A stretch of DNA of 64,000 nucleotides from an uncultured Chloroflexia bacterium. GTDB lineage: Bacteria; Chloroflexota; Anaerolineae; Anaerolineales; Anaerolineaceae. Position numbers and translations under genes: made by a program. The stretch lies in contig CAVUJS010000009.1 of NCBI GenBank assembly GCA_963741885.1, forward strand, positions 54,636 to 118,635, written 5' to 3'. The stretch's first letter is position 1. The number at the start of each line of letters is the position of its first letter. The notes below the pieces were generated by a model, which saw only the letters and a list, made by a program, of their open reading frames with translations, was not told the origin of the DNA and did no database searches. Below are positions 2,866-54,478 of this stretch, in pieces.

Positions 2866-2924
2866 GCGTAATCCCGGATGCACGTTAAATTAAGCTCAGT
2901 ACGGGCGGGAAGAAAGAACACCTC

Positions 2925-3195
2925 ATCCCACGGTTCGCCGCCCTTGCTCCTTGCGCTGGGCAACCTATCTTTGCGGCAAACGCGGTTCGCCGCCCTTGCT
3001 CCTTGCGCTGGGCAACCTATCTTTGCGGCGAACCGTACCTTCTCCAAAATTTGCAAAGCCAAATTTTAGAGAAGGATGTCTTATTCTGCCAATCAAGTCC
3101 CATAGCCAGCACATTTTTACATACAAAAAGACACCCTTCTCCATCAAACGCCGCTTTTGCGTTTGATGGAGAAGGGCCGGGGATGAGGAGTTCTT
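2925..3195. repeat. Cluster of mosaic hairpin repeat modules (BOX/BIME-like)
   Basis: Two tandem copies of CGGTTCGCCGCCCTTGCTCCTTGCGCTGGGCAACCTATCTTTGCGGC (2931-2977, 2983-3029, closed by GAACCG). Then hairpins CCTTCTCCAAAATTTG...CAAATTTTAGAGAAGG and CCCTTCTCCATCAAACGC...GCGTTTGATGGAGAAGGG plus CCGGGGATGAGG. The same modules recur at 9.7, 11.2, 31.2, 51.9 and 56.8 kb. Confidence 0.85.
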
Positions 3196-3342
3196 CCCCC
3201 CCTATTTCCATATGAATTAAGCCCGAATTAAGCTCAAGGCAAAGGGGAGATAAGCTGGCGATCTTACAATGGGACTGTACCCGCTCAAACGGGGGACGGA
3301 TCACAAACAGACACATTGTGGACAAGGAAAGGATTGACCAAC

Positions 3343-25161: not shown

Positions 25162-25923
25162 CTATTGGACTGGTTTGAGCCCGACGAACAAATCGGCGGG
25201 TTCGCTGAACTCGGAATGTTGGTAGGGCAGCGCGCGGGGTTGGAAACCCGCCTGGGCGATCAGGTGCAGCCAGGTGGCGCGGGGGAAAAGGCCGTTGACG
25301 TGGCGGTCGTAGACACAGCGCACCGCCTGAGCGCCTTCGCGCAGCAGGAAGGTGTAATCAACCAGGTAAGTGCTGTCCTGGGGATCGGGGTCATAGGTCC
25401 ATTCCAGGTAGCGCAGGGCGCGCTTTGGCTGGGGCGGGGTGACGTCCGCGCCATCATGCCCGCCCCAGCTGGATTCAGCGTGGAAGGTCTCGCGCACGCA
25501 GTCCGGCACGAACAGGGCCATGCCGCCCGGGCGCGTATGCGCGAAGGCAGTCTCAAAGGCTTGCAGCAGGTCGGCCTCGCTGGTCAGGTACATGATGGCA
25601 TCGTGGATGAAGACGGCGTCGAAGGTCTGCCCCAGGCGCACATCGCGCATGTCGCCGGGCAGGTGCGGCAGTTCCGGGTTGAGCCGCTGGGAGACCGCCA
25701 GCATGTGCGGCGAGCGGTCGACCAGGGTCACCTGGAAATGCTGTTTGAGAAAAGAGGCGTTATTGCCGCCGCCTGAACCCAACTCCAGCAAGGTGTGCGC
25801 CTCCGGCAGCATTTGCTGGATCGTGCGGGTAAAGATCCCCGCCTCTTCTTCATAATCCGCTGGGCGTGACAGCACCGGCCACCAATCGGCCAGTTCGGTA
25901 TACATCAGGGGTTGCGCTTCCAT
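25162..25923 (-). CDS. Class I SAM-dependent methyltransferase
   Basis: Motif I LLELGSGGGNNASFL and motif post-I VTLVDRS. AGGAG 8 nt before ATG 25923. The track start 25959 is an alternative. Confidence 0.85.
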   Translation of the reverse strand: MEAQPLMYTELADWWPVLSRPADYEEEAGIFTRTIQQMLPEAHTLLELGSGGGNNASFLKQHFQVTLVDRSPHMLAVSQRLNPELPHLPGDMRDVRLGQTFDAVFIHDAIMYLTSEADLLQAFETAFAHTRPGGMALFVPDCVRETFHAESSWGGHDGADVTPPQPKRALRYLEWTYDPDPQDSTYLVDYTFLLREGAQAVRCVYDRHVNGLFPRATWLHLIAQAGFQPRALPYQHSEFSEPADLFVGLKPVQ

Positions 25924-26047
25924 CGGAAAATCTCCTGTTTTTTTCGGTGTTTGCTTCAAGAATACGCTGCTTCTATGGTGAGAGAACGGATAACCATTTG
26001 GATTATGTCATCCATGATAGCGCAAGTCAGCTGTATTTAATAGATGA

Positions 26048-26076
26048 TTGACAAATTCTAAAATTTCGCCATAATT
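26048..26076 (+). promoter_or_regulatory. Sigma70-like promoter candidate for the 26110-31106 operon
   Basis: TTGACA (26048-26053), 17-nt spacer, ATAATT (26071-26076), within a ~150-bp strongly AT-rich divergent intergenic region. Confidence 0.4.
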
Positions 26077-26109
26077 TATAGTATAAATATCTAATTAATG
26101 TCCTGAACG

Positions 26110-28368
26110 TTGACGATAGGAGTATCGGTACCCGTGGACGCGGCGATTTTTTGCCCTAACTGCCAGCGCTATCTTGGGCTCCAAATGGAGTGCGAGACGT
26201 GTCATTGGGTGCGCCCAGCCCGGCCGGCTGCACCGGTGAGCCACGTGCATTGGAAAGTCCATCTCAGCGAGGCCGGCAGTTTTACCGATTCTACCATTTA
26301 CCTGACGCAGATCACTTCCAACGGCAAGCTATTATTTGTTCCCACCGCTGGCGGGGAGCTTGCGGCTTTAAACCCGGCGGATGGCCTGGAAAAATGGCGG
26401 CGCGCGCTGCACCCTGAGCATCTGCTGCGCGTGCAGTCCGCGGCGCTGTGGGGGGATGTGCTGCTGCTGGGCGCAGAGAACCTGGCCAGCCTGCCAGCGA
26501 ACGAGCGCTGCCTGCTGGCCTGGGATGCTGAAACAGGCGCGGAACTGTGGTCCTGGTCCGCACCGGGGGATAATCTATCGGTGCCGGTTGTGGCAGGCGA
26601 TGTGGCCTATTTCACCTCTTCGGAACCGATCTTGTTCGCGCTGGATTTGCCCTCCCGCAGCCTGCGCTGGCAGGTCCCAGCGGTGACCTGGTCGCCGGAT
26701 GCCCCGGTAGTGGGCAGCGGGGTGGTGGTCGTACCGGCGCGCGGGTCCAGCGTGGCGGCTTTTGCCGAGGGCGATGGTCACCGGCTGTGGTCGTTTACCG
26801 CGGACGAACCCGAAAGCGAGGTGCTGCACCTGCACCCGGCGCTTTCCGCGGACACGGCTTTTCTGGCCGGGTGGGATAAGCGCCTCTATGCGGTAGATTT
26901 AACCAGCGGGAAACTGCGCTGGCGCTTCACCGCGCCGCGCGGGATTACCGCGCCGCCGGTGCTGGCCGGTGAGCGGCTGCTGGTGGCGGTCAAAGACTTG
27001 CGCGAAAAGAAGAATGCCAACAAACCTGGTTACAGCCTGTGCGCGCTGGACCAGGCGACGGGTGACCTGCTGTGGAAGTTCTCGACCGAGCGCCATATTT
27101 ATACCCGGCCGCAGGTGGTTGGCGATACGGTGCTGTTCGGCGCGGATGACCGCCGGCTGCATATCCTGGACCTGGCCAGCGGGGAGGAGTTGTGGCAGTT
27201 TCCGGCGGCGGGCAAGGTGCAGGTCAGCCCGTGCGTGTTGGATGGCAAGATTTTCTTTGGCCAGCAGGACTACACGATCTACGCTTTGCAGTGGCAGGAG
27301 GAAGCCCAGCAGCCGCTGGAACGCAAGGACCTGCTGGCGCTGGAAGAAGGCGCGCAGCTGGCATTAGATGGGCAGTTCGCCGCGGCCGGGCAGTGGTACC
27401 GCGCGCAGGGTGATTACCAGCACGCGGCGGCGTTGTTTATGCAAGCTAACCAGCCCCAGGAGGCCGCCGAGGACTATCTGCACCTGGGCGACCTGGAGCG
27501 CCTGCTGGAGGTGCGCCGCCAGGTGGGCGACCGGACCGGCGAAGCGGAGGCCCTGGCGCTGCTGGGCAAACACGCCGAGGCGGCCCGCTTATTTGAGGCC
27601 AGCGGGCAGCTGGACCGGGCGGTGCGCGAATACAGCCAGGCCGGGCGCACGGGCTACGCCGCCATGCTGCTGTGGCAGAACGGCCGCCGGAAAGAGGCGG
27701 CAGATTTGTATCATTCGATCAACCAGGATGATAAGGCTGCTGAGGTATTGGTCGAGGACGGGCGTTTTGCCGAAGCGGCAGAAATCTACCTGCGCATTCA
27801 AAAGCCCGAGGTGGCAGCCGGGGTGCTGGCCCAGGGCGGGCTGCTCGAGCGCGCCGCGGACCTGTACGCGCAAACCGAACACACCCGGCTGGCGGCGGAG
27901 CTTTACACAAAGGCTGGTCTGAGCGACCCCGCGCTGCGCCTGTATGAGTCACTGGCAGACTGGAGCAAAGTGGCGGAAGTGGCTGAACAAAGCGGTGATC
28001 TGCTGCGCCTGGCCAAGGCCCTGACCCAGCTGGGCCAGTTGGAGCGCGCCGCGCAGGTGTATCAGCGCGCCGGGCAGCTGGATACCAGCATCGAGCTGTA
28101 CCTGCAGTTGGGCAAGTGGGAACGGGTGGCGGCGCTGGCGGGTGAGTTGGGGGATGGCGAGCGGCAGGGTTTCGCTTTCAGCCAATTGGGTTTGATGACC
28201 CAGGCCGGGGAGGCTTACGAACAGGCCGCGCGCCAGGCGCAGCAGGAGCACCCCGAAGACACGGAGCGCATCGCCAGTCTGTATGAGGCGGCGGCGAAGT
28301 ATTACGGCGAAGACGATGACTGGCTGCGCCAGAGCGCCTGTTACAACAAAGTTTGTCAGATTCTGTAA
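26110..28368 (+). CDS. Zn-ribbon + PQQ/BamB-type beta-propeller + alpha-helical repeat (TPR-like solenoid) protein
   Basis: CPNCQ...CETCHW ribbon. Repeated LxAxDxxTGxxxWxF propeller blades (LLAWDAETGAELWSW, LYAVDLTSGKLRWRF, LCALDQATGDLLWKF, LHILDLASGEELWQF). The C-terminal ~330 aa are paired-helix repeats (G..EAA.LY...). Start is uncertain (TTG 26110 or GTG 26134 after AGGAG). Confidence 0.8.
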   Translation: MTIGVSVPVDAAIFCPNCQRYLGLQMECETCHWVRPARPAAPVSHVHWKVHLSEAGSFTDSTIYLTQITSNGKLLFVPTAGGELAALNPADGLEKWRRALHPEHLLRVQSAALWGDVLLLGAENLASLPANERCLLAWDAETGAELWSWSAPGDNLSVPVVAGDVAYFTSSEPILFALDLPSRSLRWQVPAVTWSPDAPVVGSGVVVVPARGSSVAAFAEGDGHRLWSFTADEPESEVLHLHPALSADTAFLAGWDKRLYAVDLTSGKLRWRFTAPRGITAPPVLAGERLLVAVKDLREKKNANKPGYSLCALDQATGDLLWKFSTERHIYTRPQVVGDTVLFGADDRRLHILDLASGEELWQFPAAGKVQVSPCVLDGKIFFGQQDYTIYALQWQEEAQQPLERKDLLALEEGAQLALDGQFAAAGQWYRAQGDYQHAAALFMQANQPQEAAEDYLHLGDLERLLEVRRQVGDRTGEAEALALLGKHAEAARLFEASGQLDRAVREYSQAGRTGYAAMLLWQNGRRKEAADLYHSINQDDKAAEVLVEDGRFAEAAEIYLRIQKPEVAAGVLAQGGLLERAADLYAQTEHTRLAAELYTKAGLSDPALRLYESLADWSKVAEVAEQSGDLLRLAKALTQLGQLERAAQVYQRAGQLDTSIELYLQLGKWERVAALAGELGDGERQGFAFSQLGLMTQAGEAYEQAARQAQQEHPEDTERIASLYEAAAKYYGEDDDWLRQSACYNKVCQIL

Positions 28369-28984
28369 ATGGCCTAACCTAAAACTGCGCTTTGAACTGG
28401 AAACGCAGTTCTTCGAGGGCGAGTACAACTTGATGAACCTGGTGGTGCTAAATACCGGTTTCAGCCCGGCGCAAAACATCCGCGTGAACAGCATCAGCCC
28501 GAAATTCCGCCTGGATGAAGGCGAATCGCAGATCTCGCAGCGCTTGCTGGGCGTGCAGCAGGATAAATCGCTGCGCTTGCTGCTGCTGCCGCGGCCAGAT
28601 GTATTGGGCATGGTGCTGCTGCAGGTCAACGTGCTGTACGAAGATCCGCAGGGCGGCGAACACCAGTCCATCTTTGAGCAAACTGTGAAAGTGTTTGGCC
28701 GGGATGAAAAACTGCGCGCGGCGGAAGGGCTGCCAGATGAAGCGACCCCGCTCACCGGCGCGGAGGCCATGAATATCTCGCGGCTGCGGCGCGGGTTGAT
28801 CGAATATTTTAATGAAGATGAGCTGGAATCGCTGTGCTTTGACCTGCAGGTGGACCATGAATCGCTGCCGGGCGAGACGAAAGCGGGAAAAGCACGCGAG
28901 TTAATTCGTTACCTGGGGCGGCGCGGGCGGCTGCGCGAGCTGGAAGATATGGTTCACCAGCTGCGCCCCAATGTGAACTGGTAG
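28283..28984 (+). CDS. Beta-sandwich-like region + C-terminal effector-associated-domain (EAD)-like helical module
   Basis: C-terminal LIEYFNEDELESLCFDLQVDHESLPGETKAGKARELIRYLGRRGRLRELEDMVHQLRPNVNW is homologous to the CHAT protein C-terminus. Start unresolved: ATG 28283 overlaps the upstream gene by 86 nt, ATG 28433 truncates the fold, and the frame is open and protein-like from 28370. Confidence 0.7.
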   Translation: MRRRRSITAKTMTGCARAPVTTKFVRFCKWPNLKLRFELETQFFEGEYNLMNLVVLNTGFSPAQNIRVNSISPKFRLDEGESQISQRLLGVQQDKSLRLLLLPRPDVLGMVLLQVNVLYEDPQGGEHQSIFEQTVKVFGRDEKLRAAEGLPDEATPLTGAEAMNISRLRRGLIEYFNEDELESLCFDLQVDHESLPGETKAGKARELIRYLGRRGRLRELEDMVHQLRPNVNW

Positions 28985-29027
28985 TGGGGAGTTTCCCTGA
29001 ACCGGTTCAGGAGGAAGGAAGGTAATT

Positions 29028-31106
29028 ATGGCTGAACAAGAAATCAAGACCCTGGGGCGCTATGTGATCCAGGCGGAGCTGGGCAAAGGTGGCTTCGCAG
29101 TGGTCTACCAGGCCCTGGATCCGAACCTGGAGCGGGTGGTCGCCCTCAAAGTGATGCACCCCATGCTGCTCAGCGATCCTTCCTTCGCGCAGCGTTTTCG
29201 GCGCGAGGCCCGGGCGCTGGCGGCGCTGCGGCACCCCAATATCATCACTGTCTATGAGGTGAGCGAGGCGGATGGCCGCCTGTTTATCGCCATGGAAATG
29301 GCCAGCGGGCCAAGCCTGGCGGGGTATATCACCGAACACGGGCGCGTATCCTGGAATGAGACGCTGCGCCTGATGCAGCCGGTATGTTCGGCGCTGGCCT
29401 ACGCGCACGAGCAGGGCATCGTGCACCGCGACCTGAAACCGGCTAACATCATGCTGGACCAGGAGCGCGGCCCGCTGCTGACCGACTTTGGCCTGGCGCG
29501 TTTAATCAGCGCGAGCAGCGCCAGCACCAGTCTGACCTCCACCGGCGGAATTCTGGGCACCCCGGCCTACATCGCCCCCGAGGTGTGGGAGTTTGACACA
29601 GCCGGACCGGCGGCGGATATTTACGCGCTGGGCTGCATCCTGTACGAAATGCTCACCGGGCAGCTGCTCTTCGCCGGGCAGACGCCCATGCAGATTCTGC
29701 GCGCGCATGATCGCGGCCCGCAGTTCCCCGCAGCCTGGCCGGAAGATGTGCCGCAGGGTATTGGGGCAGTGCTGGGGCGCGCCCTGGCTCGCAAACCGGA
29801 AGAACGCTATGCCAATCCCGGCGAGCTGTGGCGCGCGCTGGATGACCTGGACGCGGAGGACCGCCTGGAGCGCGAACGGGCCGAAAAGGCTGCCGTGGTG
29901 CAGCCCTGGCGGGAGGAGTTTGAGGCGGCGCTAAAGGGCGGCGAATGGCGGCTGGCGCGCATGGCCTTAGGCCGCTGGCAGGCGGTTTACGCCGAGGACC
30001 CCGACCTGCTGGCAGCGCGCAACCGCCTGGATAAGCTACAGCATGAAACGGAGGAACAGCAGCAGCGCCAACAGGCGGAACTGGAGCACCAGGAACAGGC
30101 GCAGCTGGAACAAGAACGCCAGGCGGCCCTGCGGATGCAGGAGACAGAGCGCCAGGCGCGGGAGGCTGCCGCGCAGCACGATCGAGAGGTTGAACGCCTC
30201 CGGCAACCGGCGAAAAGCGATAAGCCTGCTCAACCCCAGCCCCGGCCTGCCCGGTCGGGCGCTGCGCCGGTCACTGGGCCAACCGTTGTCCCGATCCAAC
30301 CGGAAGGGTTCCAGCCACCAGCCCCATTCGGCATCGTGCAGGCGGGGATCATTCTGCTGTCGTTGATTTCGGCAGCATTTACACTTTCGGCAAGCAGCGG
30401 CAGCGGGCTGGAGACGGCGATTGTGCTCTCCTACCCGGTGCTGGCGCTGCTGCTGTTCCTCCCGCGCGGGGTGCGCCGGGTGGTACGGGTCATTTATCTG
30501 TTGTATGCTTTACTGGGAAGCGGGGTCTTAATTATTACACTGCTGCAAGATCCTTCGAGCAGTTATGCCGGGCAGTACCTGGTGTTGGCATTTCTATTGG
30601 CAGGCCTGGTGGTACTTTTATGGCTCGATCGGGCACGTGAGCGCGGGCCAGCCCTGCTGAAAGAGGCCGTGGAAAAACCGGTCCAAAGCGCAGCTCAACC
30701 TGCCGGAGTGAACTGGGCCGCTACGGGCGAACCAATGAACCGCATCAGCTCAGCGAATGTTTTGAACATCGCGCAAATATTAATGATCCTGACCAGCCTG
30801 GCGATGTTTTATAATCCTGTTTCCAAAGTATTCGAAAGCTACTACAACTACTGGAGTTGGCCAATTCTCGGTCATCTAATTTTATTTTTCCTGGTGCTTT
30901 CGCTGACCTACAAAATTCCCAACCGCCAGCTGGTTCGCAGCCTGACAATCGCTTACCTGATATTCCTTGAATTCACTTTATACATCAATTACGATTACTT
31001 ATTCAACTTTTGGTTACCGGTTATCTTGCTCGCCTTGCTGTGGGTCGACCGCCGACGCGACCAGGTGTTGGCCCGCACGGACGTCTACCCTCCAAAGGCC
31101 GGGTAG
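29028..31106 (+). CDS. Hanks-type Ser/Thr protein kinase with Gln/Glu coiled coil and C-terminal 8-TM (2 x 4 TM) module
   Basis: GGAGGAAGGAAGG RBS. LGKGGFAVVY, VALK, HRDLKPANIM, DFGLAR, GTPAYIAPE. Then QQQRQQAELEHQEQAQLEQERQ. Two 4-TM units end in LLWLDRARER and LLWVDRRRDQ. Confidence 0.9.
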   Translation: MAEQEIKTLGRYVIQAELGKGGFAVVYQALDPNLERVVALKVMHPMLLSDPSFAQRFRREARALAALRHPNIITVYEVSEADGRLFIAMEMASGPSLAGYITEHGRVSWNETLRLMQPVCSALAYAHEQGIVHRDLKPANIMLDQERGPLLTDFGLARLISASSASTSLTSTGGILGTPAYIAPEVWEFDTAGPAADIYALGCILYEMLTGQLLFAGQTPMQILRAHDRGPQFPAAWPEDVPQGIGAVLGRALARKPEERYANPGELWRALDDLDAEDRLERERAEKAAVVQPWREEFEAALKGGEWRLARMALGRWQAVYAEDPDLLAARNRLDKLQHETEEQQQRQQAELEHQEQAQLEQERQAALRMQETERQAREAAAQHDREVERLRQPAKSDKPAQPQPRPARSGAAPVTGPTVVPIQPEGFQPPAPFGIVQAGIILLSLISAAFTLSASSGSGLETAIVLSYPVLALLLFLPRGVRRVVRVIYLLYALLGSGVLIITLLQDPSSSYAGQYLVLAFLLAGLVVLLWLDRARERGPALLKEAVEKPVQSAAQPAGVNWAATGEPMNRISSANVLNIAQILMILTSLAMFYNPVSKVFESYYNYWSWPILGHLILFFLVLSLTYKIPNRQLVRSLTIAYLIFLEFTLYINYDYLFNFWLPVILLALLWVDRRRDQVLARTDVYPPKAG

Positions 31107-31178
31107 AGCCGGCGGCATAAGAAAGCCGGCGGCATAAGAAAGCCGGCGGCATAAGAAAGCCGGCGGCATAAGAAAGCC
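31107..31178. repeat. Perfect 17-bp tandem repeat x4.2 (AGCCGGCGGCATAAGAA)
   Basis: Starts immediately after the kinase stop codon. The unit shares CCGGCGGCATAA with the 5' arm of the family A repeat. Confidence 0.95.
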
Positions 31179-31445
31179 TCATCCCGCGGTTCGCCGCTCT
31201 TGCTCCTTGCGTTGGGCAACCTATCCTTGCGGTGAACCGTCCCTTCTCCATCAAACGCAAGAGCGGCGTTTGATAGAGAAGGGTGTCTTTTTGCAAATCA
31301 GCATAGGCTGGCCAGGGAACTTTTTTTGCAATAAGTCACCCTTCTCTAAAATTTGGCTTTGCAAATTTTGGAGAAGGGCCGGGGATGAGGTATTCTTGTT
31401 TTGCGTTTGATGGAGCAAGAGCGGCGAACCGCGGGATGAGGTGGT
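31177..31445. repeat. Cluster of mosaic hairpin repeat modules between the convergent operons
   Basis: CGGTTCGCCGCTCTTGCTCCTTGCGTTGGGCAACCTATCCTTGCGG, CCCTTCTCCATCAAACGC.../...GTTTGATAGAGAAGGG, CCCTTCTCTAAAATTTGG...CAAATTTTGGAGAAGGGCCGGGGATGAGG, and an inverted GCGGCGAACCGCGGGATGAGG. Confidence 0.85.
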
Positions 31446-31523
31446 GTTCTTTCCCCGCCATTTCCACAGAAAATCCCTTTGTTGCCTTTGCTATAGAAGT
31501 CCGGCAGCTGGGGTGGGAGCGGA

Positions 31524-32864
31524 TTAAAATTCCAGGTTGGGACGCTCGGCGCGCACTGCGGCGGCCAGTTCCGCCAGGCGGCCGCGGCTGGTGAAGTACT
31601 GGAGCATGGCGCGGGCTTTGGCCGGTTTGACCTGCCCGCGCAGCAGTTCCCAATCCACACCCAGGGTAAAGCACAGGGCTTCCAGGTCCTCCAGGGTGAA
31701 GGCTTCGCCGCTGAGCACATGATACAGGCGCACGGGGTCGATGGGCGCGGCTGAATTGGGGGGCCGGTTACTGGCTGCGGAGGGGCCGGGTTGCGCCTGC
31801 GGGCTGGCGGGAGCCCATAACTGCCCGCTTTTCAAGCTCATGAACAGCACCGGCGCGGCTTCATCGGGCTGGCCCTGGATGGCGCGCCGGGCGATGGAGA
31901 CGGCCCGATCGATACAGCCGTCCTGGCGCAGGGCCTGGAACAGCGGCGGCAGGAACAATTCAGCGGAGGGGAAGCTCAATGCGCCGTGCATGGCCAGCAC
32001 CGCCGGGATGCCTGCCGCGACCAGGCGCGGGCCTAATGCGCCCAACATCTCCGGGCTGCCCTGCCCGGCGCTCTCGCACACCACCAGGATCGCCAGGCGG
32101 GGCAGGTTGAGCGTGCCGGTCAGGCGGTGGGCCAGGTCGGCGGCGGAAACGCGCGCGGCGCTGCCCTGCTCGTCCTCCAGCAGCAGCCAGGCGCTGCCGG
32201 CGATCAGCTTGCCGTGACATACCAGGTAGAGCACCTCCTTTCCGGGGATGCTGGCGGCCAGCCGGTTGAGCGTGCAGTGCTCTGATGCGCTGCCGGGCAG
32301 GAAATCCAGGCTTATGCCAGCCAGGCCCGCCCGGGCGCGCGCCTGTTCGGCGGTTGGATCAATGGCAGCCAGGCCGTACTCGCGAGCATTGCGCGGCGCG
32401 GCGACCGCCGCGAGGGCGGTCAGGGCTGTTTTGGGCGCGGGCAGGGCGGCGCTGGCCGCGCCGGGCAGGAAGCGCGAGAATAGGATGTCCTCGCGCGTGG
32501 TCAATCGCTCTGCCTGGCCGGGAAGGCAGAGCAGTTCCCAACGCAGGCTGTGCAGGGGTTCCGCACCTGGGCCGAGCAGCAGGCGCAGCCGCACAGGACC
32601 CGGCTGCGGGCGGCCCTGGGCTATGCCGCGCGCAGCTGCCAGGGTCTCGCGCAGGGCTGGGTCCGCAAACAGCATCTTACTGAGCGCATCCCCGTATGCA
32701 GCGGGGCTGCCCGCCTCGCCATTCAACAACAGCGGGTCAATATTCACCGGGAACGGCCCGCGGTAGAGGATACTGTCCGCGCCGTAATCCAGGCGCACTT
32801 CCGCCTGGTAGGCATCCCCTGCACCGCGCAGAGCCAGTTCAAAATCCACATCTGCCAGCGCCAT
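31524..32864 (-). CDS. CHAT-domain (caspase-fold) protease with C-terminal EAD-like module
   Basis: His in VLYLVCHGKL (His217, 32216..32214) and Cys in LAILVVCESAG (Cys263, 32078..32076) form the caspase/CHAT dyad context. The last ~70 aa (31739..31527) match the C-terminus of the 28984 gene product. AGGAG RBS before ATG 32864. Confidence 0.85.
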   Translation of the reverse strand: MALADVDFELALRGAGDAYQAEVRLDYGADSILYRGPFPVNIDPLLLNGEAGSPAAYGDALSKMLFADPALRETLAAARGIAQGRPQPGPVRLRLLLGPGAEPLHSLRWELLCLPGQAERLTTREDILFSRFLPGAASAALPAPKTALTALAAVAAPRNAREYGLAAIDPTAEQARARAGLAGISLDFLPGSASEHCTLNRLAASIPGKEVLYLVCHGKLIAGSAWLLLEDEQGSAARVSAADLAHRLTGTLNLPRLAILVVCESAGQGSPEMLGALGPRLVAAGIPAVLAMHGALSFPSAELFLPPLFQALRQDGCIDRAVSIARRAIQGQPDEAAPVLFMSLKSGQLWAPASPQAQPGPSAASNRPPNSAAPIDPVRLYHVLSGEAFTLEDLEALCFTLGVDWELLRGQVKPAKARAMLQYFTSRGRLAELAAAVRAERPNLEF

Positions 32865-32881
32865 CGCACCGCTCCTGATTC

Positions 32882-32920
32882 AAAAAGGAGCTGGTCAAAA
32901 CGCGCGTTTTGGCCAGCTCC
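32882..32920 (-). terminator. Intercistronic terminator/attenuator-like hairpin between the trypco2-like gene and the CHAT gene
   Basis: Minus strand GGAGCTGGCCAAAACGCG/CGCGTTTTGACCAGCTCC (17-bp stem, one mismatch) starts right after the stop codon and is followed by TTTTT, then the AGGAG RBS of the CHAT gene. Confidence 0.6.
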
Positions 32921-33331
32921 TTAGATTATTCTTTGCCGGTCTGCTTTTTTCCAGCCGGGCTGGTTTTTTTCTTTTTCTTCCTCTTCCTCTTTGTCTTTGT
33001 CTTCATGCCAGCGCAGCATCACGTTGAAGTTGGCTTCGACCCCGCCGCGCGAGATCACCAACCCGCCCACTTCCGCGGAAGCTTTCAGGCCAAAGTTAAC
33101 TTGCAGTTCCTGAGGCGCGGGCTCGCCGCTTTCGCGCATGTGATTGACCAGGCTGGTCGCCAGCTTGCGAATCGTCCCGACCGATTCGGCAAAGTTAATC
33201 CCGGGCTGTTCCGCCGGATGCCCGCCGGGCTTGCCAGGCGGAATCAGGCCGCTTGCGCCGCGCGGAACCTCGGTGGTCTCCAGGTAGACGGCTGTGCCGT
33301 CCTCGAGTTCAAATTTGACATAGGTTGCCAT
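32921..33331 (-). CDS. Trypco2-like (CU044_2847-family-like) small protein with acidic/Lys-rich tail
   Basis: GGGAGG 7 nt before ATG 33331. MATYVKFELEDGTAVYLETTE ... LQVNFGLKASAEVGGLVISRGGVEANFNVMLRW fits my recollection of the trypsin-co-occurring domain 2 pattern. Tail is DKDKEEEEEKEK. Confidence 0.65.
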   Translation of the reverse strand: MATYVKFELEDGTAVYLETTEVPRGASGLIPPGKPGGHPAEQPGINFAESVGTIRKLATSLVNHMRESGEPAPQELQVNFGLKASAEVGGLVISRGGVEANFNVMLRWHEDKDKEEEEEKEKNQPGWKKADRQRII

Positions 33332-33439
33332 GTTGTAACCTCCCTTGTTGGTTATGCGGGCAGCGCCAGCGCCCCCCGCGAAATTCACACAGATATTCCT
33401 GTGGATTTGTTGACTGAATTCTAAGTGAGAAGGGGGGTG

Positions 33440-34435
33440 TTAGTCAACCTCTTCCAGACCCTCGAACCCACTGATTGCGTTTAAGGCATTGCCAGTCTCG
33501 AATTTGCTCCACAGGTCATTGGCCAGGGCCTGCGCGTTTTGCCTGATTTTGTACCGCATGAAATACTGGCATAAGCGCTCGACATCCCGCATAAAGAGCG
33601 CGGGCGCGTCTGGGTTGCGCCGCGGATCGACCGCTTGCGGGAAATCAATGATTTTAAAGGTATTTTCCCAATACAGGATGTTATAGGCCGAAAAGTCGGC
33701 ATGGACACAGTGACAGGCCAGCATAATGGCCAGGTTATCGACCAGTTTCTCAAAGATGAGCCGCGCTTCACCTGCCTCCAGGGTGACCTGGTTGAGGGTG
33801 GGCGCGGGGACGGTGGCCTCTCCGAGGTATTCCATCAAAATCACATTGCTGCCATGCGCCAGGGGTTTGGGCACATCGGCCCCGGCCTGATGCAGCTTTT
33901 GCAGCGTCTGATACTCTGCCTCGAGCCAGGTGTTATGGCGCAGTTCCTGCCCATAGCGCGTGTTTTTCTGCATGGCCAGCGCCTCGCGCCGGCTGCGGAC
34001 GGCCTTGCCATGTTCATCGATCATATCGCGGCCCTGGCGGTAGCGTGCGTCATTGCGCAGGTTGCGGAACATGCGCGGGCGGTACACTTTCGCGGCGATC
34101 AAATCCAGCCCGGTGGAGGGGTGCGCCGCGCAGCAGTAGACGTTGGCCTCTTTGCCGCCTTTTGCTTTCCATAGGATATCCGTAATGAGCTGGTTGTTGT
34201 AGAACTCTTCCAGGTTGCTGATCAGCCAGAAATGTTCATGCTCGGCGGGTTGAAAAGAGGGGCTAAAGTTTTGCTGAACATCAACCGGGGCTTTATCCGC
34301 ATGTTCCACCAGATCGGCCAGGAAGCGGGCTTGTTTTTCGCGCTGACCCAGGCGGCGGTTTTTGCGCTGAATGCGCTTGGCAGGGGTCGGGTCAAAATCA
34401 GCGTTCAGATAGTTATCAAGATCGTTCTTTCGCAT
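33440..34435 (-). CDS. RIO-type atypical serine protein kinase/ATPase
   Basis: GGKEANVYCC (flexible-loop region), LIAAKVYR (Lys), HCVHADFSAYNILY (catalytic loop) and KIIDFPQAV (metal-binding Asp) follow the RIO1/RIO2 order. Confidence 0.8.
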   Translation of the reverse strand: MRKNDLDNYLNADFDPTPAKRIQRKNRRLGQREKQARFLADLVEHADKAPVDVQQNFSPSFQPAEHEHFWLISNLEEFYNNQLITDILWKAKGGKEANVYCCAAHPSTGLDLIAAKVYRPRMFRNLRNDARYRQGRDMIDEHGKAVRSRREALAMQKNTRYGQELRHNTWLEAEYQTLQKLHQAGADVPKPLAHGSNVILMEYLGEATVPAPTLNQVTLEAGEARLIFEKLVDNLAIMLACHCVHADFSAYNILYWENTFKIIDFPQAVDPRRNPDAPALFMRDVERLCQYFMRYKIRQNAQALANDLWSKFETGNALNAISGFEGLEEVD

Positions 34436-50403: not shown

Positions 50404-51884
50404 CATAGGCGCTAACTTATGGTTGTCCATTAAGCTGCACAAAGCATTGCCAATTGAGAGCGAGCCACCGCAAGCTGCTGACGGCGTTTTCTGGGAGAGC
50501 CACACAGGTACCTTTCGAGCAGGGCGAGCTTCCCCAAAACCTGTTGCCAACTGGGCAGTTCGCCAATGACCCAAGACAGGAGGGTGTGGATCAAGTAGGT
50601 GTCCAGGCGCCAAATGCTGATCGGGCGATCCAGGTCGTCAAACAAATCCGGTACCTGTTGGGCGATTTCCGAGCGCAAACCATCGACCAAAATGGCGGCC
50701 AGGAGTTTGGTCAGCAAGTAGGTTTGCGCCAGGTCATTATTCTGAGCGCGCAGGTGATCCAGGTCCAACAAGCTTTTCATGCGTTTGAAATACAGCTCAA
50801 TTTGCCAGCGCCAGCGATACAGCGCCAAGACTTGTTCGCTAGACCAGCCTTGGGCCGGTAAGTTAGTGAGGAGGATGACAAACCCGACGGCGTACAGGTT
50901 CTTCTCCATCGGTTGATGTTTTTTCTTGCGGCTGTTCTTGCGCGCGCGTTCACGGGCTTTTTCCGCTTTTTCGGGTGGCAAGGGACAGGCCACCAGGCGC
51001 ACCGGCTGCAGCCCTTGCGCGCCAGGCAGCCACACCTGCGTTTCCGCCGGGTCAGTCGCTCCTTGCGGAAAGGTAGCTTTGAGCCAGGCGATGATGTCGA
51101 ACTTCTCTCCCGCTTGGCTATAGACCGGCATGGTATTCCACTGCTCGCGCGTGACAAACTTGGCCCCGGCCTGCAAGGCCTTTTCCAGGCCACGGGTGCG
51201 GGTATAACCGCTATCCGCCAGATAGATGTCCTGGTCGCTCAGCGAAAAGTTGCCAAAGCCTTCGCCGCCATGTTCATCGGTGAGGATCACTTGATCAATG
51301 CGCATCTGGTCGAGATCCATCGACACATGCAGCCGCCAATCGGTGCCCTGGCTCTTGGGTTTGGAGATCACGCTGGCATCCAGGATTTTGAGATGCAGCG
51401 CCGCTTGGGACGGGAATTGGATGCCGTTCTGCTGTAGCAGTTGCACCGCCAGTGCGCCCAGCCAGGCTGGCATGCCTTGTAGGCGTCGCATCAGATCCAC
51501 ATCCGAGATATTGCAGATCTCTAACAGGGTCGCCATCAGCGCGGTTTGCCGTAATGACCAATCCGGCAAGCTATACAGAAACGCCAATTGTAAGAGCGCT
51601 TCCGCGCTGCGGATCTCACGGCAGCGCAGCAAGGCCGCATGTTGCTTGGCGCTTTGATCTAGATCGTCTGGCAGTCTTTGTTTCACCCTTTCCCATTTCT
51701 CATTCAGCAACGGATGACTGCTCGTGGCTGTTGCCGCTACGGGTTGATCGAAGATTTGAACTGTGCTACACTCCACCTTGACCTCCTGGGTTTGATTTTG
51801 GTTTTGAGCAGCTTAATCTTACCCTAGAGGTCATTTTTGTCGTATCTGTTTGTTTCCGTTCAGAACCATAAGTTAGCGCCTATG
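50404..51884 (-). mobile_element. IS4-family insertion sequence (1481 bp) with 21-bp perfect TIRs and an 11-bp target-site duplication
   Basis: TIR CATAGGCGCTAACTTATGGTT at 50404-50424, with its reverse complement at 51864-51884. Flanking CCCCCGGCCCC at 50393-50403 and 51885-51895. Confidence 0.9.
50430..51776 (-). CDS. IS4-family DDE transposase
   Basis: 448 aa. YRWRWQIELYFKRMK (Y-2-R-3-E-6-K signature of the IS4 family). Fills the IS between the TIRs. Confidence 0.9.
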   Translation of the reverse strand: MECSTVQIFDQPVAATATSSHPLLNEKWERVKQRLPDDLDQSAKQHAALLRCREIRSAEALLQLAFLYSLPDWSLRQTALMATLLEICNISDVDLMRRLQGMPAWLGALAVQLLQQNGIQFPSQAALHLKILDASVISKPKSQGTDWRLHVSMDLDQMRIDQVILTDEHGGEGFGNFSLSDQDIYLADSGYTRTRGLEKALQAGAKFVTREQWNTMPVYSQAGEKFDIIAWLKATFPQGATDPAETQVWLPGAQGLQPVRLVACPLPPEKAEKARERARKNSRKKKHQPMEKNLYAVGFVILLTNLPAQGWSSEQVLALYRWRWQIELYFKRMKSLLDLDHLRAQNNDLAQTYLLTKLLAAILVDGLRSEIAQQVPDLFDDLDRPISIWRLDTYLIHTLLSWVIGELPSWQQVLGKLALLERYLCGSPRKRRQQLAVARSQLAMLCAA

Positions 51885-52140
51885 CCCCCGGCCCCTCTCC
51901 ATTTTCGCCAAAGCTCGAAAACGGAGGGGTGCCTTTTAATGGTGCGAAAATTCGCCCGATTTCTGCCTCCCCTCTCCGAAACCTGCCGGTTTTGCAGGTT
52001 TTGGAGAGGGGATCGAGAGGTGAGGATTTTGTTTGTTACGCTGAGCATAACCTCCATACGGCGAACGCGGTTCGCCGCAAGGAACGGTTGCCCAACGCAA
52101 GGAGAAAGGGCGGCGAACCGTGGGGTGAGGATTTTATGCG
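51885..52140. repeat. Mosaic hairpin repeat cluster (right half of the element interrupted by the IS)
   Basis: CTCTCCATTTTCGCCAAAGCTCGAAAACGGAGGGG, CCCCTCTCCGAAACCTGCCGGTTTTGCAGGTTTTGGAGAGGGG, CGGTTCGCCGCAAGGAACGGTTGCCCAACGCAAGGAGAAAGGGCGGCGAACCG, GGGTGAGGATTTT. Collinear with the uninterrupted copy at 56715..56955. Confidence 0.85.
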
Positions 52141-52292
52141 CATTCGCCCTGGTTACCCCGGCTGCGGGATTGATTTTTGAGTGTGGTATATAATCATATG
52201 ATCAATTGGTTTGGAAAATGCTTTTATATTCCAGCCCGGCTGGTAATCGATTATTGAATATCGGAGATATTGAGTCCAGGACTTGAGGTTCT

Positions 52293-53393
52293 ATGGCGAA
52301 TAATGAGAGTTTGAATAAGGCAAATATAGCAAAGAAAGACGAGTTTTATACGCAGCTGTCGGATATTGAGGCAGAAATGCGCCATTACAAAGAACAGTTT
52401 CGCGGCAAGGTCATTTTCTGCAACTGCGACGACCCATATGAGAGCAACTTTTTCAAATATTTTGCGATGAACTTTAATTTTTTGGGTCTAAAAAAACTGA
52501 TCGCTACCAGTTATTCCGGGTCTCCGGTCGCGACCCAACAACTGTCCTTGTTTGATGTTAAGGATTTGGCGGTGGAAAGCACCGATGACAGGCACCCGTA
52601 TAAAGTCGAGATTACTGAAGTAAATGACGAAAACGCGGACGGCGCGGTTGGCCTGGCGGACGTGGCGTATTTGCTCAAAAACAAAAAAAATGCTTTAGCG
52701 TTACTGGAAGATGGCGGCGATTTCCGCTCGGCTGAATGTATCGCACTTGCTGAAAGAAGCGGATATCGTAGTCGACTAATCCACCATTTTCACTGTTCCG
52801 GGAATATGTGGCGCAGTTAGATGGAATACGAAAAAGCAGTTTATCATTATTGGTAATACAAATGCTTTAACATATAAAGAAATATTTAAACTAATAAAGA
52901 GGACAATAAGATTTGGCTATGGCAAATTTCCATAGTGGGAATGTATTTTTATGTTCCAGATTATTACCCGATAAATAGCGATAAGATTGAAGAGTGGACG
53001 AAAGATGGTTAGGGTTTCGTACATCTTGTTGGTTTACTAACCTATGAGTTTGAAGAACGACACGAAAATTATTACATCTATATAAGCATTACACATCCGA
53101 AGAATACCCTCGCTATATTAATTACGACGCAATTGAAGTGCTCAAAAACCGCCGAAATACCCTGCGACTATGATGGTGAAATGGGCGTTCCCATTACATT
53201 CCTTGATAAATACAATCCGGAACAATTTGAAATTATAGGTTCAAGTATCTTTCTCGGAAAACCGATGTCTGAAATTGCCCCGAAAGGAACCTATATGGCG
53301 GGGGGCGTAAGGTTCTATCTTCCAAATGGGGATGGCACTTACAAACGTCTTTATGATCGGATTGTGATTAAGCGGAAAGGCGCTCGACAATGA
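52293..53393 (+). pseudogene. Decayed N6-adenine DNA methyltransferase (EcoRI-methylase-like family), multiple frameshifts and stops
   Basis: The N-terminal 150 aa are intact (KKDEFYTQ, VIFCNCDDPYESNFFKYF). NPPFSLFREYVAQL, IIIGNTNALTYKEIFKLIK, YFYVPDYYPINSDKIEEW, WFTNL, YPRYINYDAIEVLKN and GVPITFLDKYNPEQFEIIG are all present but spread over all three frames, with at least 6 frame changes. Confidence 0.8.
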
Positions 53394-54478
53394 AAATCGA
53401 ATTGCAAGAAATCACCGTCCGCGAAGTCGCGGAAAAGTACGTAGATAACGCCGAAGAGGGCGTGGTGGGCTACCACAGCAAACTGAATATCCGCCCGAAA
53501 TACCAGCGCGAGTTCGTCTATGACGAGAAAAAGCGTAACGCGGTGATGGATACCATCCGCAACGGTTTTCCCCTCAATGTCATCTACTGGGCGAAAAATG
53601 AAGATGGCACGTTTGAAGTGTTAGACGGTCAGCAAAGGACGATCAGTTTTTGCCAGTACGTTTGCGGCGATTTCTCCATCGACAACCGCGCTTTCCACAA
53701 CCTGACGAACACCGAAAAAGAACAGATCCTCAACTATCCGCTGATGGTCTATTTCTGCGAGGGCAACGACAAGGAAAAGTTAGACTGGTTCAAGATCATC
53801 AATATTGCTGGCGAAAAACTCACCGACCAGGAACTGCGCAACGCGGTATATACCGGACCCTGGCTGACACACGCAAAATCGATCTTCAGTAAAAGCAACT
53901 GCGCGGCTTATCTTTTATCCAAAGACTATGTGAGTGGCTCTCCGATCCGGCAAGAAATTCTCGAAACAGCATTAAGTTGGATCTCAAATGGCGAAATAGA
54001 GAAGTACATGTCTATGCACCAGCACGACCCGAACGCGAATGAGTTGTGGATGTATTACCGGAGCGTCATAGATTGGGTGCAATTAACCTTCCCTGAGTAC
54101 CGTAAAGAAATGAAAGGCATCGAATGGGGCGGTTTGTACGATCAATTCAAAGATGAATTGTTTGACACCCACAAGTTGGAGCAGGAAATACAGTCCCTGA
54201 TGCTGGATGATGACGTCACAAAAAAACGGGGAATTTATCCTTATGTATTAAACCGCGACGAGAAATATCTCAATCTTCGCGCCTTTACCCCGAATCAAAA
54301 GCGGGAAGCGTATGAAAGGCAAAAAGGCATCTGTCCAAGATGCGGACCTGAGAAACACTACGCACTGGAAGAAATGGAAGCTGACCACATTACTCCGTGG
54401 CATGAAGGCGGGAAAACCATCGCGGAGAACTGCCAGTTTCTTTGCAAGAGACACAATCGGGAAAAATCTGGAAAATAA
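53390..54478 (+). CDS. DUF262 (ParB/Srx-fold, GmrSD N-domain-like) + C-terminal HNH nuclease
   Basis: RPKYQREFVY and LDGQQRT (DUF262 motifs). C-terminal CPRCG...ADHITPWHEGGKTIAENCQFLCKRHNREK (HNH). ATGA overlap with the end of the methylase pseudogene. AT-rich codon usage. Confidence 0.85.
   Translation: MKIELQEITVREVAEKYVDNAEEGVVGYHSKLNIRPKYQREFVYDEKKRNAVMDTIRNGFPLNVIYWAKNEDGTFEVLDGQQRTISFCQYVCGDFSIDNRAFHNLTNTEKEQILNYPLMVYFCEGNDKEKLDWFKIINIAGEKLTDQELRNAVYTGPWLTHAKSIFSKSNCAAYLLSKDYVSGSPIRQEILETALSWISNGEIEKYMSMHQHDPNANELWMYYRSVIDWVQLTFPEYRKEMKGIEWGGLYDQFKDELFDTHKLEQEIQSLMLDDDVTKKRGIYPYVLNRDEKYLNLRAFTPNQKREAYERQKGICPRCGPEKHYALEEMEADHITPWHEGGKTIAENCQFLCKRHNREKSGK

Follow-up and report, generated by a model that had tools for sequence, protein, structure and literature searches.

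A convergent gene locus at positions 26,048 to 34,435 of a 64,000-nucleotide stretch of DNA from an uncultured Chloroflexia bacterium (hereafter the window) encodes a caspase-fold CHAT protease that faces a putative sensor scaffold and a membrane kinase. A reading of this DNA made without database searches (the sequence-only reading) had proposed that these products and three of their neighbors form a six-gene conflict system. Using a list of open reading frames (ORFs) and Pfam, we found all six ORFs at the coordinates reported in that reading, and each of the domains that it listed was present according to Pfam and NCBIfam. The first plus-strand frame, A, encodes the N-terminal part of the sensor. 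Its ORF starts at 26110, its database version begins at ORF residue 9, and the gene occupies 26134-28368. The product of A features a CxxC...CxxC Zn ribbon at its N-terminus, followed by a PQQ-type beta-propeller (PQQ_2, 5.5e-36) and a TPR/SNAP-like alpha-solenoid with matches to TPR, SNAP, and clathrin-like helical repeats; the propeller is related to that of AfsK, with an NCBIfam match (2.6e-24) that lies below the cutoff. The second plus-strand frame, B (ORF 28283-28984, used part 28370-28984), encodes a beta-sandwich, a linker, and an effector-associated domain of the EAD7 family (PF19960), which is its sole Pfam match (3.3e-22) and covers its final 62 residues. The third, C (29028-31106), encodes a membrane Hanks Ser/Thr kinase (Pkinase, 2.3e-52) that carries the motifs VALK (K41), HRD133, DFG153, and APE183, which suggests an active kinase domain. 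This domain is followed by a Glu/Gln-rich coiled-coil region and then by 7-8 hydrophobic, presumptive transmembrane (TM) segments across residues 435-680.

On the minus strand, D (31524-32864) encodes the CHAT protease (1.3e-20) with a C-terminal EAD7 domain (2.9e-18). Its catalytic His/Cys dyad, described as intact by the sequence-only reading, lies within LVCHG (H217) and VVCESA (C263) and is invariant in 12 orthologue sequences. An AlphaFold2 (AF2) model of D, with a moderate predicted local distance difference test score (pLDDT 73), returned the CHAT domain of DdvA as its best Foldseek match, followed by separase, caspases, and MALT1. The gene E (ORF 32921-33388, gene 32921-33331, minus strand) encodes a 136-residue protein that had been described as trypco2-like. 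Pfam instead assigns it to the Trypco1/Pepco family (Trypco1, PF19493, 6.7e-19; score 68.7 bits, cutoff 24.6), although its placement in CU044_2847 by NCBIfam (2.5e-11; score 44.1 bits, cutoff 23) comes close to that description. The last gene, F (33440-34435, minus strand), encodes a RIO1-type kinase (3.6e-37) in which the catalytic HxDxSxxN motif is kept (HADFSAYN), as is IDFPQ. The absence of a Walker A NTPase also held, as no Walker A motif was present in the six proteins, and no NTPase family was detected by Pfam or NCBIfam in these proteins or in the orthologous sensors. EAD7 occurs twice in the window, in B and D, and the two copies are 45% identical; the single shared C-terminal module that had been postulated for these proteins thus corresponds to one Pfam family, the main point on which the sequence-only reading could have failed.

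The frames A and B, which had been described as two separate genes, correspond in relatives to a single protein of 925-964 amino acids that spans both regions. Product A is collinear with residues 6-748 of 960-residue orthologues, and when orthologues were aligned to the window by tblastn, the match followed A to residue ~748 and continued in the frame of B to its end. The change of frame occurs at 28355-28369 (plus strand), where the window contains 10 nucleotides (nt) and orthologues contain 9. At this junction, orthologues read VCQ-FRR-WPNLK, and the window reads VCQIL-stop in the frame of A and ...FCKWPNLK in the frame of B. The beta-sandwich of B starts upstream of any start codon that follows the stop of A. 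The supposed small EAD protein is therefore the scaffold's own C-terminus, which a 1-nt insertion has separated from the rest. A search for stand-alone homologues of B returned B alone. We also considered a programmed +1 frameshift at CUG-UAA-A and rejected it, as the site lacks a slippery P-site codon and the orthologues are simply in frame.

We compared the locus with related loci encoding CHAT-EAD7 or its sensor. Context was available for few of these, mostly on short contigs, and three independent lineages could be examined. CHAT-EAD7 orthologues (52-62% identity) are, in L001-L003/L007 and L006, convergent with a single gene for a PQQ-TPR-EAD7 protein of 925-960 residues. As in the window, where the split sensor and the 8-TM kinase converge on CHAT-EAD7, locus L006 carries a sensor and a kinase with a solute-binding domain opposite CHAT-EAD7. 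Two further loci are cut by the contig end: in L073 an orthologous kinase converges on CHAT-EAD7, and in L076 this position is held by a truncated SBP_bac ORF that resembles the C-terminus of the L006 kinase. The kinases of L006 and L073 are orthologous to C (54-55% identity), and an orthologous Hanks kinase accompanies the module in four of the five informative loci. The fifth, L001, has the convergent sensor and CHAT-EAD7 with no kinase within 10 kb, and hence the kinase is not obligatory. Two other loci encode CHAT-EAD7 with no sensor nearby: L070 carries CHAT-EAD7 alone, and L004 carries two tandem CHAT-EAD7 genes with a nucleotidyltransferase. Upstream of CHAT, the relatives encode MFS, PspC, or MarR proteins and never Trypco1 or RIO, and the contexts of their loci differ, with MFS, PspC, or S8 peptidase neighbors. 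Taken together, the unit conserved across three lineages is an EAD7-tipped sensor that converges on CHAT-EAD7 and is in most cases accompanied by a Hanks kinase.

The EAD7 domains of these proteins fall into two separate lineages. Sensor-type copies are 51-85% identical to one another, CHAT-type copies 56-94%, and identity across the two types is 35-48%, which indicates that the pairing of sensor and CHAT through EAD7 is old and stable rather than the product of recent local duplication. The recurrence of the convergent pair in other genomes supports the earlier proposal that the shared module, EAD7, links CHAT to the propeller/solenoid scaffold, and a further line of evidence comes from the scaffold family itself. 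An exhaustive HMMER search with A yielded many propeller matches, among which ~30 representative clusters are collinear with it from the Zn ribbon onward and share the order Zn ribbon, PQQ propeller, TPR, beta-sandwich, and variable C-terminus. This C-terminus is EAD7 in 9/30 representatives, CHAT in 3/30, a C14 caspase domain in 1/30 (P0198), and EAD1 followed by trypsin in 1/30 (P0102); others terminate with a coiled coil or an additional Zn ribbon. CHAT is fused directly to the scaffold in P0124 and P0196, and in P0202 the scaffold, EAD7, and CHAT follow one another in a single chain. Such single-chain fusions support a coupling of sensor to protease in the family. Kaur et al. (2020, PMC7159879) relied on this very pattern, in which an effector is joined to the core in some members and bridged to it by an EAD in others, when they argued that EADs serve as coupling adaptors. 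The scaffold family comprises at least ~30 clusters at 50% identity, and at its C-terminus EADs and proteases of the caspase or trypsin type replace one another.

Searches in other sequence collections returned little. Metagenome scans yielded nothing with RIO, and nothing with the sensor alignment, for which the patterns used were Zn-ribbon peptides; a scan of viral contigs with CHAT-EAD7 was likewise empty. When plasmids were searched by tblastn, B had no match and D matched only two distant cyanobacterial CHAT sequences. In locus L004 (8635-12251), the tandem CHAT-EAD7 paralogues are ~40% identical and are followed by the NTP_transf_2 nucleotidyltransferase. A propeller sensor is absent from the 10 kb on either side, but a separate CHAT gene and a TPR gene are found ~6 kb upstream.

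We consider it reasonably likely, if well short of certain, that the conserved unit is an NTPase-less, EAD7-bridged variant of the EAD/caspase-like conflict systems, in which a sensor and a kinase are paired with a convergent CHAT-EAD7 protease. The module would probably serve cell suicide or defense. Under this reading, the propeller/TPR scaffold would bind a trigger, for instance a protein of an invader or a ligand released by damage, and CHAT protomers would be brought onto the scaffold by homotypic EAD7-EAD7 docking. Proximity or allostery would then switch on the protease, with no involvement of an NTPase switch, and the activated CHAT would cut cellular targets, which could result in growth arrest or death. 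The kinase would act as a frequent accessory input, probably gating the scaffold or the protease by phosphorylation on envelope signals. The extracytoplasmic part of the kinase varies between relatives, from 8 TM segments in the window to a solute-binding domain in L006 and L076, which suggests such gating by envelope signals. It had further been proposed that kinases replace the NTP switch of related systems; this is possible, but the data do not require it, and the kinase-less L001 weakens it.

Several observations weigh against the conflict-system reading. A search of PADLOC-DB 2.0 found no matching system: hits were limited to the generic kinase models PD-T4-6 and mad6 and a weak SAVED_CHAT match (3.3e-08), and A, B, and E had none. 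Some CHAT proteases, such as HetF and DdvA, have developmental or regulatory functions, so that immunity is not the sole possible role. No CHAT substrate was identified in the relatives. The kinase is dispensable in L001, CHAT-EAD7 stands without a nearby sensor in L004 and L070, and the lineages with examinable context number only three. Finally, the sensor is frameshifted in the window, and the module may therefore be inactivated, and possibly without function, in this genome. If the module is functional, its significance is that proximity activation of bacterial caspase-like proteases needs no nucleotide switch.

The frameshift raises the possibility that the locus is a decaying remnant, in which the sensor has been uncoupled from EAD7, CHAT goes unrecruited, and the locus no longer functions in the window genome. 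The 1-nt insertion truncates A and leaves the beta-sandwich-EAD7 part with no good start codon or ribosome-binding site (RBS), and it lies outside any homopolymer run. Decay would also be in keeping with the terminator upstream of CHAT, described below, and with a second degraded gene elsewhere in the window, which encodes an EcoRI-like methylase. However, the frameshift is a single lesion, and the remaining ORFs of the module are intact with their catalytic motifs. The extra nucleotide could be a real mutation or an indel error of the assembly, and B may start at ATG 28283 or ATG 28433 and associate non-covalently. We regard decay, which concerns the window genome, as a tentative explanation that has appreciable but less than even chances.

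A different role for the same proteins would be regulatory proteolysis, in which the kinase and the scaffold govern the processing of a regulator by CHAT in envelope stress, the cell cycle, or filament development, in the manner of cyanobacterial HetF or of DdvA, an anti-sigma factor that contains CHAT. DdvA is the top structural match of D, the PQQ propeller resembles those of AfsK-type kinases, and the kinase has envelope or solute-sensing domains. The CHAT gene also abuts or overlaps an MFS transporter gene in L001, L006, and L076. This role is nonetheless unlikely in our estimation, as the module has a patchy, island-like distribution in differing contexts and was inserted into a variable region, as set out below. 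Furthermore, EADs together with swapped C-terminal proteases (CHAT, C14, and trypsin) are hallmarks of conflict systems (PMC7159879; PMC8195603), and a sister clade of CHAT proteins is fused to SIR2-like domains.

The overlap with the transporter gene involves the stop of the upstream MFS gene, which CHAT-EAD7 abuts or overlaps at 8740-11311 of L001, 182-2786 of L006, and 2-2620 of L076, and suggests that MFS and CHAT-EAD7 are co-transcribed in this one clade of CHAT-EAD7 loci. The closest CHAT relatives beyond the EAD7 orthologues (P0016-P0068; L008-L069) are CHAT-SIR2_2 (PF13289) fusions of ~690 amino acids, and CHAT fused to SIR2-like domains makes up most of the wider CHAT clade. These fusions occur widely across Anaerolineae, Chloroflexales, Acidobacteriota, Actinomycetota, and Myxococcota.

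We next consider the genes that flank the module. Trypco1 orthologues that are 50-62% identical to E occur in four independent relatives (L077, L079, L080, and L082) within a shared backbone that runs orf39326, orf38284, FtsK, (SQHop-like), Trypco1, methyltransferase, ..., ion channel, GT2. The backbone genes are orthologous to the flanks of the window locus, with 41-79% identity and most at 50-70%. In the four relatives, the gap between Trypco1, which lies around position 8001 in L077, L079, and L082 and at 428-886 in L080, and the methyltransferase gene is ~5-80 nt. In the window, the block A/B-C-D (~25,960-32,920, ~6.9 kb) sits exactly between the methyltransferase gene (25162-25959) and Trypco1. 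As Trypco1 abuts the methyltransferase gene in the same FtsK...GT2 backbone of all four relatives, the parsimonious reading is that the three-gene module was inserted beside a resident Trypco1 gene. The junctions contain no direct or inverted repeats of at least 9 nt, and hence no recognizable target-site duplication or att site, and GC content does not set the block apart. Another variable slot, filled here by the RIO gene, separates the SQHop-like gene from Trypco1; an NpmA-like gene takes this place in L079, and L077 and L082 have neither the slot nor the SQHop-like gene. Synteny thus places RIO and Trypco1 among the chromosomal backbone neighbors, outside the conserved module, and leaves the proposed role of E as a regulator within the system without support.

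The genes of the minus strand had been described as an operon of RIO, Trypco1, and CHAT, which the sequence around them does not support. Separate promoter-like sites precede F and E, and an intrinsic terminator (32882-32920, minus strand), made up of a 34-nt perfect hairpin and a TTTTT run behind it, sits between the Trypco1 stop, which it immediately follows, and the AGGAG RBS and ATG of CHAT. The predicted stability of this terminator is -24.1 kcal/mol (z = -4.85). An Rfam search returned one spurious miRNA match only, which is actually the terminator palindrome.

These results bear on the original proposal of a six-gene coevolving system, in which RIO, the Trypco-like protein, CHAT-EAD, the scaffold, the EAD protein, and the Hanks kinase act together and kinases replace the NTP switch. 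The genes are physically adjacent in the window, the enzymes all look catalytically competent, and an NTPase is absent. By contrast, RIO appears in none of the related CHAT-EAD7 or Trypco1 loci, with no RIO homologue in the 83 loci examined; separate promoter-like sites precede RIO and Trypco1, with Trypco1 ending in the terminator; Trypco1 is part of the conserved backbone; what had been called an EAD protein is the product of a gene fragment; and the sensor/CHAT pair of L001 is kinase-less. We conclude that the six-gene version is largely refuted by synteny, and we judge it highly improbable.

The position of Trypco1 directly upstream of a protease has a precedent. Pepco, which occurs with serine or cysteine proteases, is a beta-barrel pore toxin, assembled in advance, that is licensed in a characterized homologue when a neighboring protease removes its charged C-terminal tail (bioRxiv 10.1101/2025.11.14.688446). 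In E, a 28-residue tail with 64% charged residues follows the conserved NYNVMLRW strand, and the tail is kept in 19 orthologues. The AF2 model of E is poor (pLDDT 60; < 50 for residues 111-136), and a profile search of the PDB found no relative of Trypco1. It is conceivable that in the window genome the insertion site was selected and the module forms a larger unit, in which sensor-docked CHAT trims the Trypco1/Pepco tail and frees a membrane pore. In keeping with this idea, E is a bona fide Trypco1/CU044_2847 protein, is co-oriented with and directly upstream of the protease in the canonical Pepco arrangement, and carries a charged tail of the kind whose removal activates Pepco. However, in the four relatives that keep Trypco1 between FtsK and the methyltransferase gene, the sequence within 8 kb of it encodes no protease of the trypsin, caspase, or CHAT type, and a Trypco1 profile detected no ORF in the other CHAT-EAD7 loci (0/6) or in the wider CHAT-clade loci of reference genomes (0/62). 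A strong terminator separates E from D, and the same backbone has accepted other insertions, namely a restriction-modification system in L077 and NpmA in L079. Synteny and the terminator argue that the adjacency of E and CHAT arose by insertion, and a larger unit of this kind is somewhat unlikely. By analogy with Pepco, Trypco1 may at most have become an opportunistic CHAT substrate in the window genome.

A more ambitious version would combine these elements into an apoptosome-like, NTPase-free platform, in which a Zn-ribbon/propeller/TPR scaffold for pattern recognition recruits CHAT by EAD7-EAD7 docking, the membrane Hanks kinase provides the licensing that STAND or MoxR proteins provide elsewhere, and death follows from trimming of the resident Pepco tail. 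This version strikes us as improbable; if true, filamentous Chloroflexota would possess a so far undescribed family of immune modules in which a kinase gates a sensor and its protease. A protease-less orphan Pepco gene in the relatives is an unexplained observation in itself. The case also calls for caution, as a textbook-looking adjacency of protease and Pepco can arise through insertion of an island beside a conserved, protease-less Pepco gene.

Comparison with known systems places the favored reading, an NTPase-less conflict module, closest to the EAD-coupled NTP-dependent conflict systems (PMC7159879; PMC8195603). In both, EAD7 is found on the core or sensor and on a neighboring effector, the effector is a caspase-superfamily peptidase, and other members of the family carry these effectors as direct fusions to the core. 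Both also occur in filamentous lineages, with Hanks kinases and superstructure-forming repeats as common accessories. The window locus differs in that its core lacks a MoxR, STAND, or GTPase NTPase, its kinase appears catalytically intact and is membrane-anchored, and a Zn-ribbon/PQQ/TPR/beta-sandwich core was not found described in either of those papers. Judged by the features that define such systems, the same EAD occurs on two neighbors, copies sit on core and effector (in relatives; the sensor copy is detached in the window), and an NTPase core is absent. EADs were defined as add-ons to NTPase-centered conflict systems, and here the same adaptor logic is found on an NTPase-free sensor. 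Full-text literature searches turned up no account of a Zn-ribbon/PQQ-propeller/TPR/EAD7 sensor that is accompanied by a Hanks kinase and CHAT-EAD7.

Other systems share individual elements with the module. In TPR-CHAT proteases (CHAT stands for Caspase HetF Associated with TPRs), such as Csx29 of the type III-E Craspase, a TPR binding-sensor scaffold controls CHAT. In contrast, TPR and CHAT are here on separate chains bridged by EAD7, so that the module resembles a split version; it has no CRISPR effector and additionally includes a propeller, a Zn ribbon, and a kinase. Animal death-fold recruitment of caspases, through CARD-CARD contacts in the apoptosome or DD/DED contacts in the death-inducing signaling complex (DISC), likewise uses a helical homotypic adaptor on sensor and protease for proximity activation. 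This likeness is an analogy only and carries no claim that EAD7 adopts a death fold; the locus also has no APAF-1-type NTPase. AfsK-type Hanks kinases with PQQ propellers share with the locus the association of an AfsK-related propeller with a Hanks kinase; unlike in AfsK, propeller and kinase are here the products of separate genes, and the propeller protein, which is coupled to a protease, additionally carries TPR, a beta-sandwich, and EAD7. The Protease-Pepco modules (SsAvs4-SsPepco, Evans et al., bioRxiv 10.1101/2025.11.14.688446) resemble the window in having a Trypco1-family protein directly upstream of a protease and a charged, probably disordered C-terminal tail, as in E. They differ in that the pairing is not conserved here, where Trypco1 is an ancestral backbone gene beside FtsK and the methyltransferase and a terminator separates it from the protease; furthermore, the protease is CHAT rather than trypsin-like, and a STAND sensor is lacking. 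As a compact two- or three-gene system, the module is well suited to direct tests of EAD-EAD docking.

Further features of the locus concern its regulation and its repeats. The promoter-like site that had been noted before the sensor gene (26048-26075, plus strand; TTGACA-16/17-CATAAT/ATAATT) lies at the left edge of the inserted block and matches the consensus at 11/12 positions, which makes it the best match in the 25.9-34.9 kb region; this is a consensus match only. The repeat cluster reported at 31107-31520 is also real. It begins with four exact tandem units of 17 nt (AGCCGGCGGCATAAGAA) at 31107-31174, which abut the kinase stop codon, and a fifth copy, degenerate in sequence, overlaps the kinase gene at its end. 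The remainder of the convergent intergenic region contains, at 31176-31445, a ~280-nt element with nested inverted repeats and the terminal arms CCTCATCCC...GGGATGAGG, which looks like a dispersed miniature inverted-repeat transposable element (MITE) or repetitive extragenic palindrome (REP) that is unspecific to the locus. The arms and internal hairpins recur at 2910-3200 of the window, and we therefore rejected the cluster as a regulatory element of the system.

Finally, the backbone around the locus shows further variation. The FtsK-(SQHop-like)-Trypco1-methyltransferase unit is tightly packed, with intergenic gaps of ~5-80 nt overall and of 5-21 nt in 3/4 Anaerolineae-type relatives. An Eco57I/BsuBI-PstI restriction-modification system is inserted after the methyltransferase gene in L077 (9192-11647), and the NpmA-like methyltransferase gene is inserted before Trypco1 in L079 (6966-7565). 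From such gene content, the FtsK...GT2 region is evidently a variable hotspot. Elsewhere in the window, a low-GC islet (50430-54478; 44% vs about 60%) lies beside a DDE_Tnp_1 transposase gene (50430-51776) and has the appearance of a restriction or defense islet in decay. It encodes a GmrSD_N/HNH endonuclease (53390-54478) and an EcoRI-like adenine methylase that is degraded into two parts (52293-52820 and 53133-53393).

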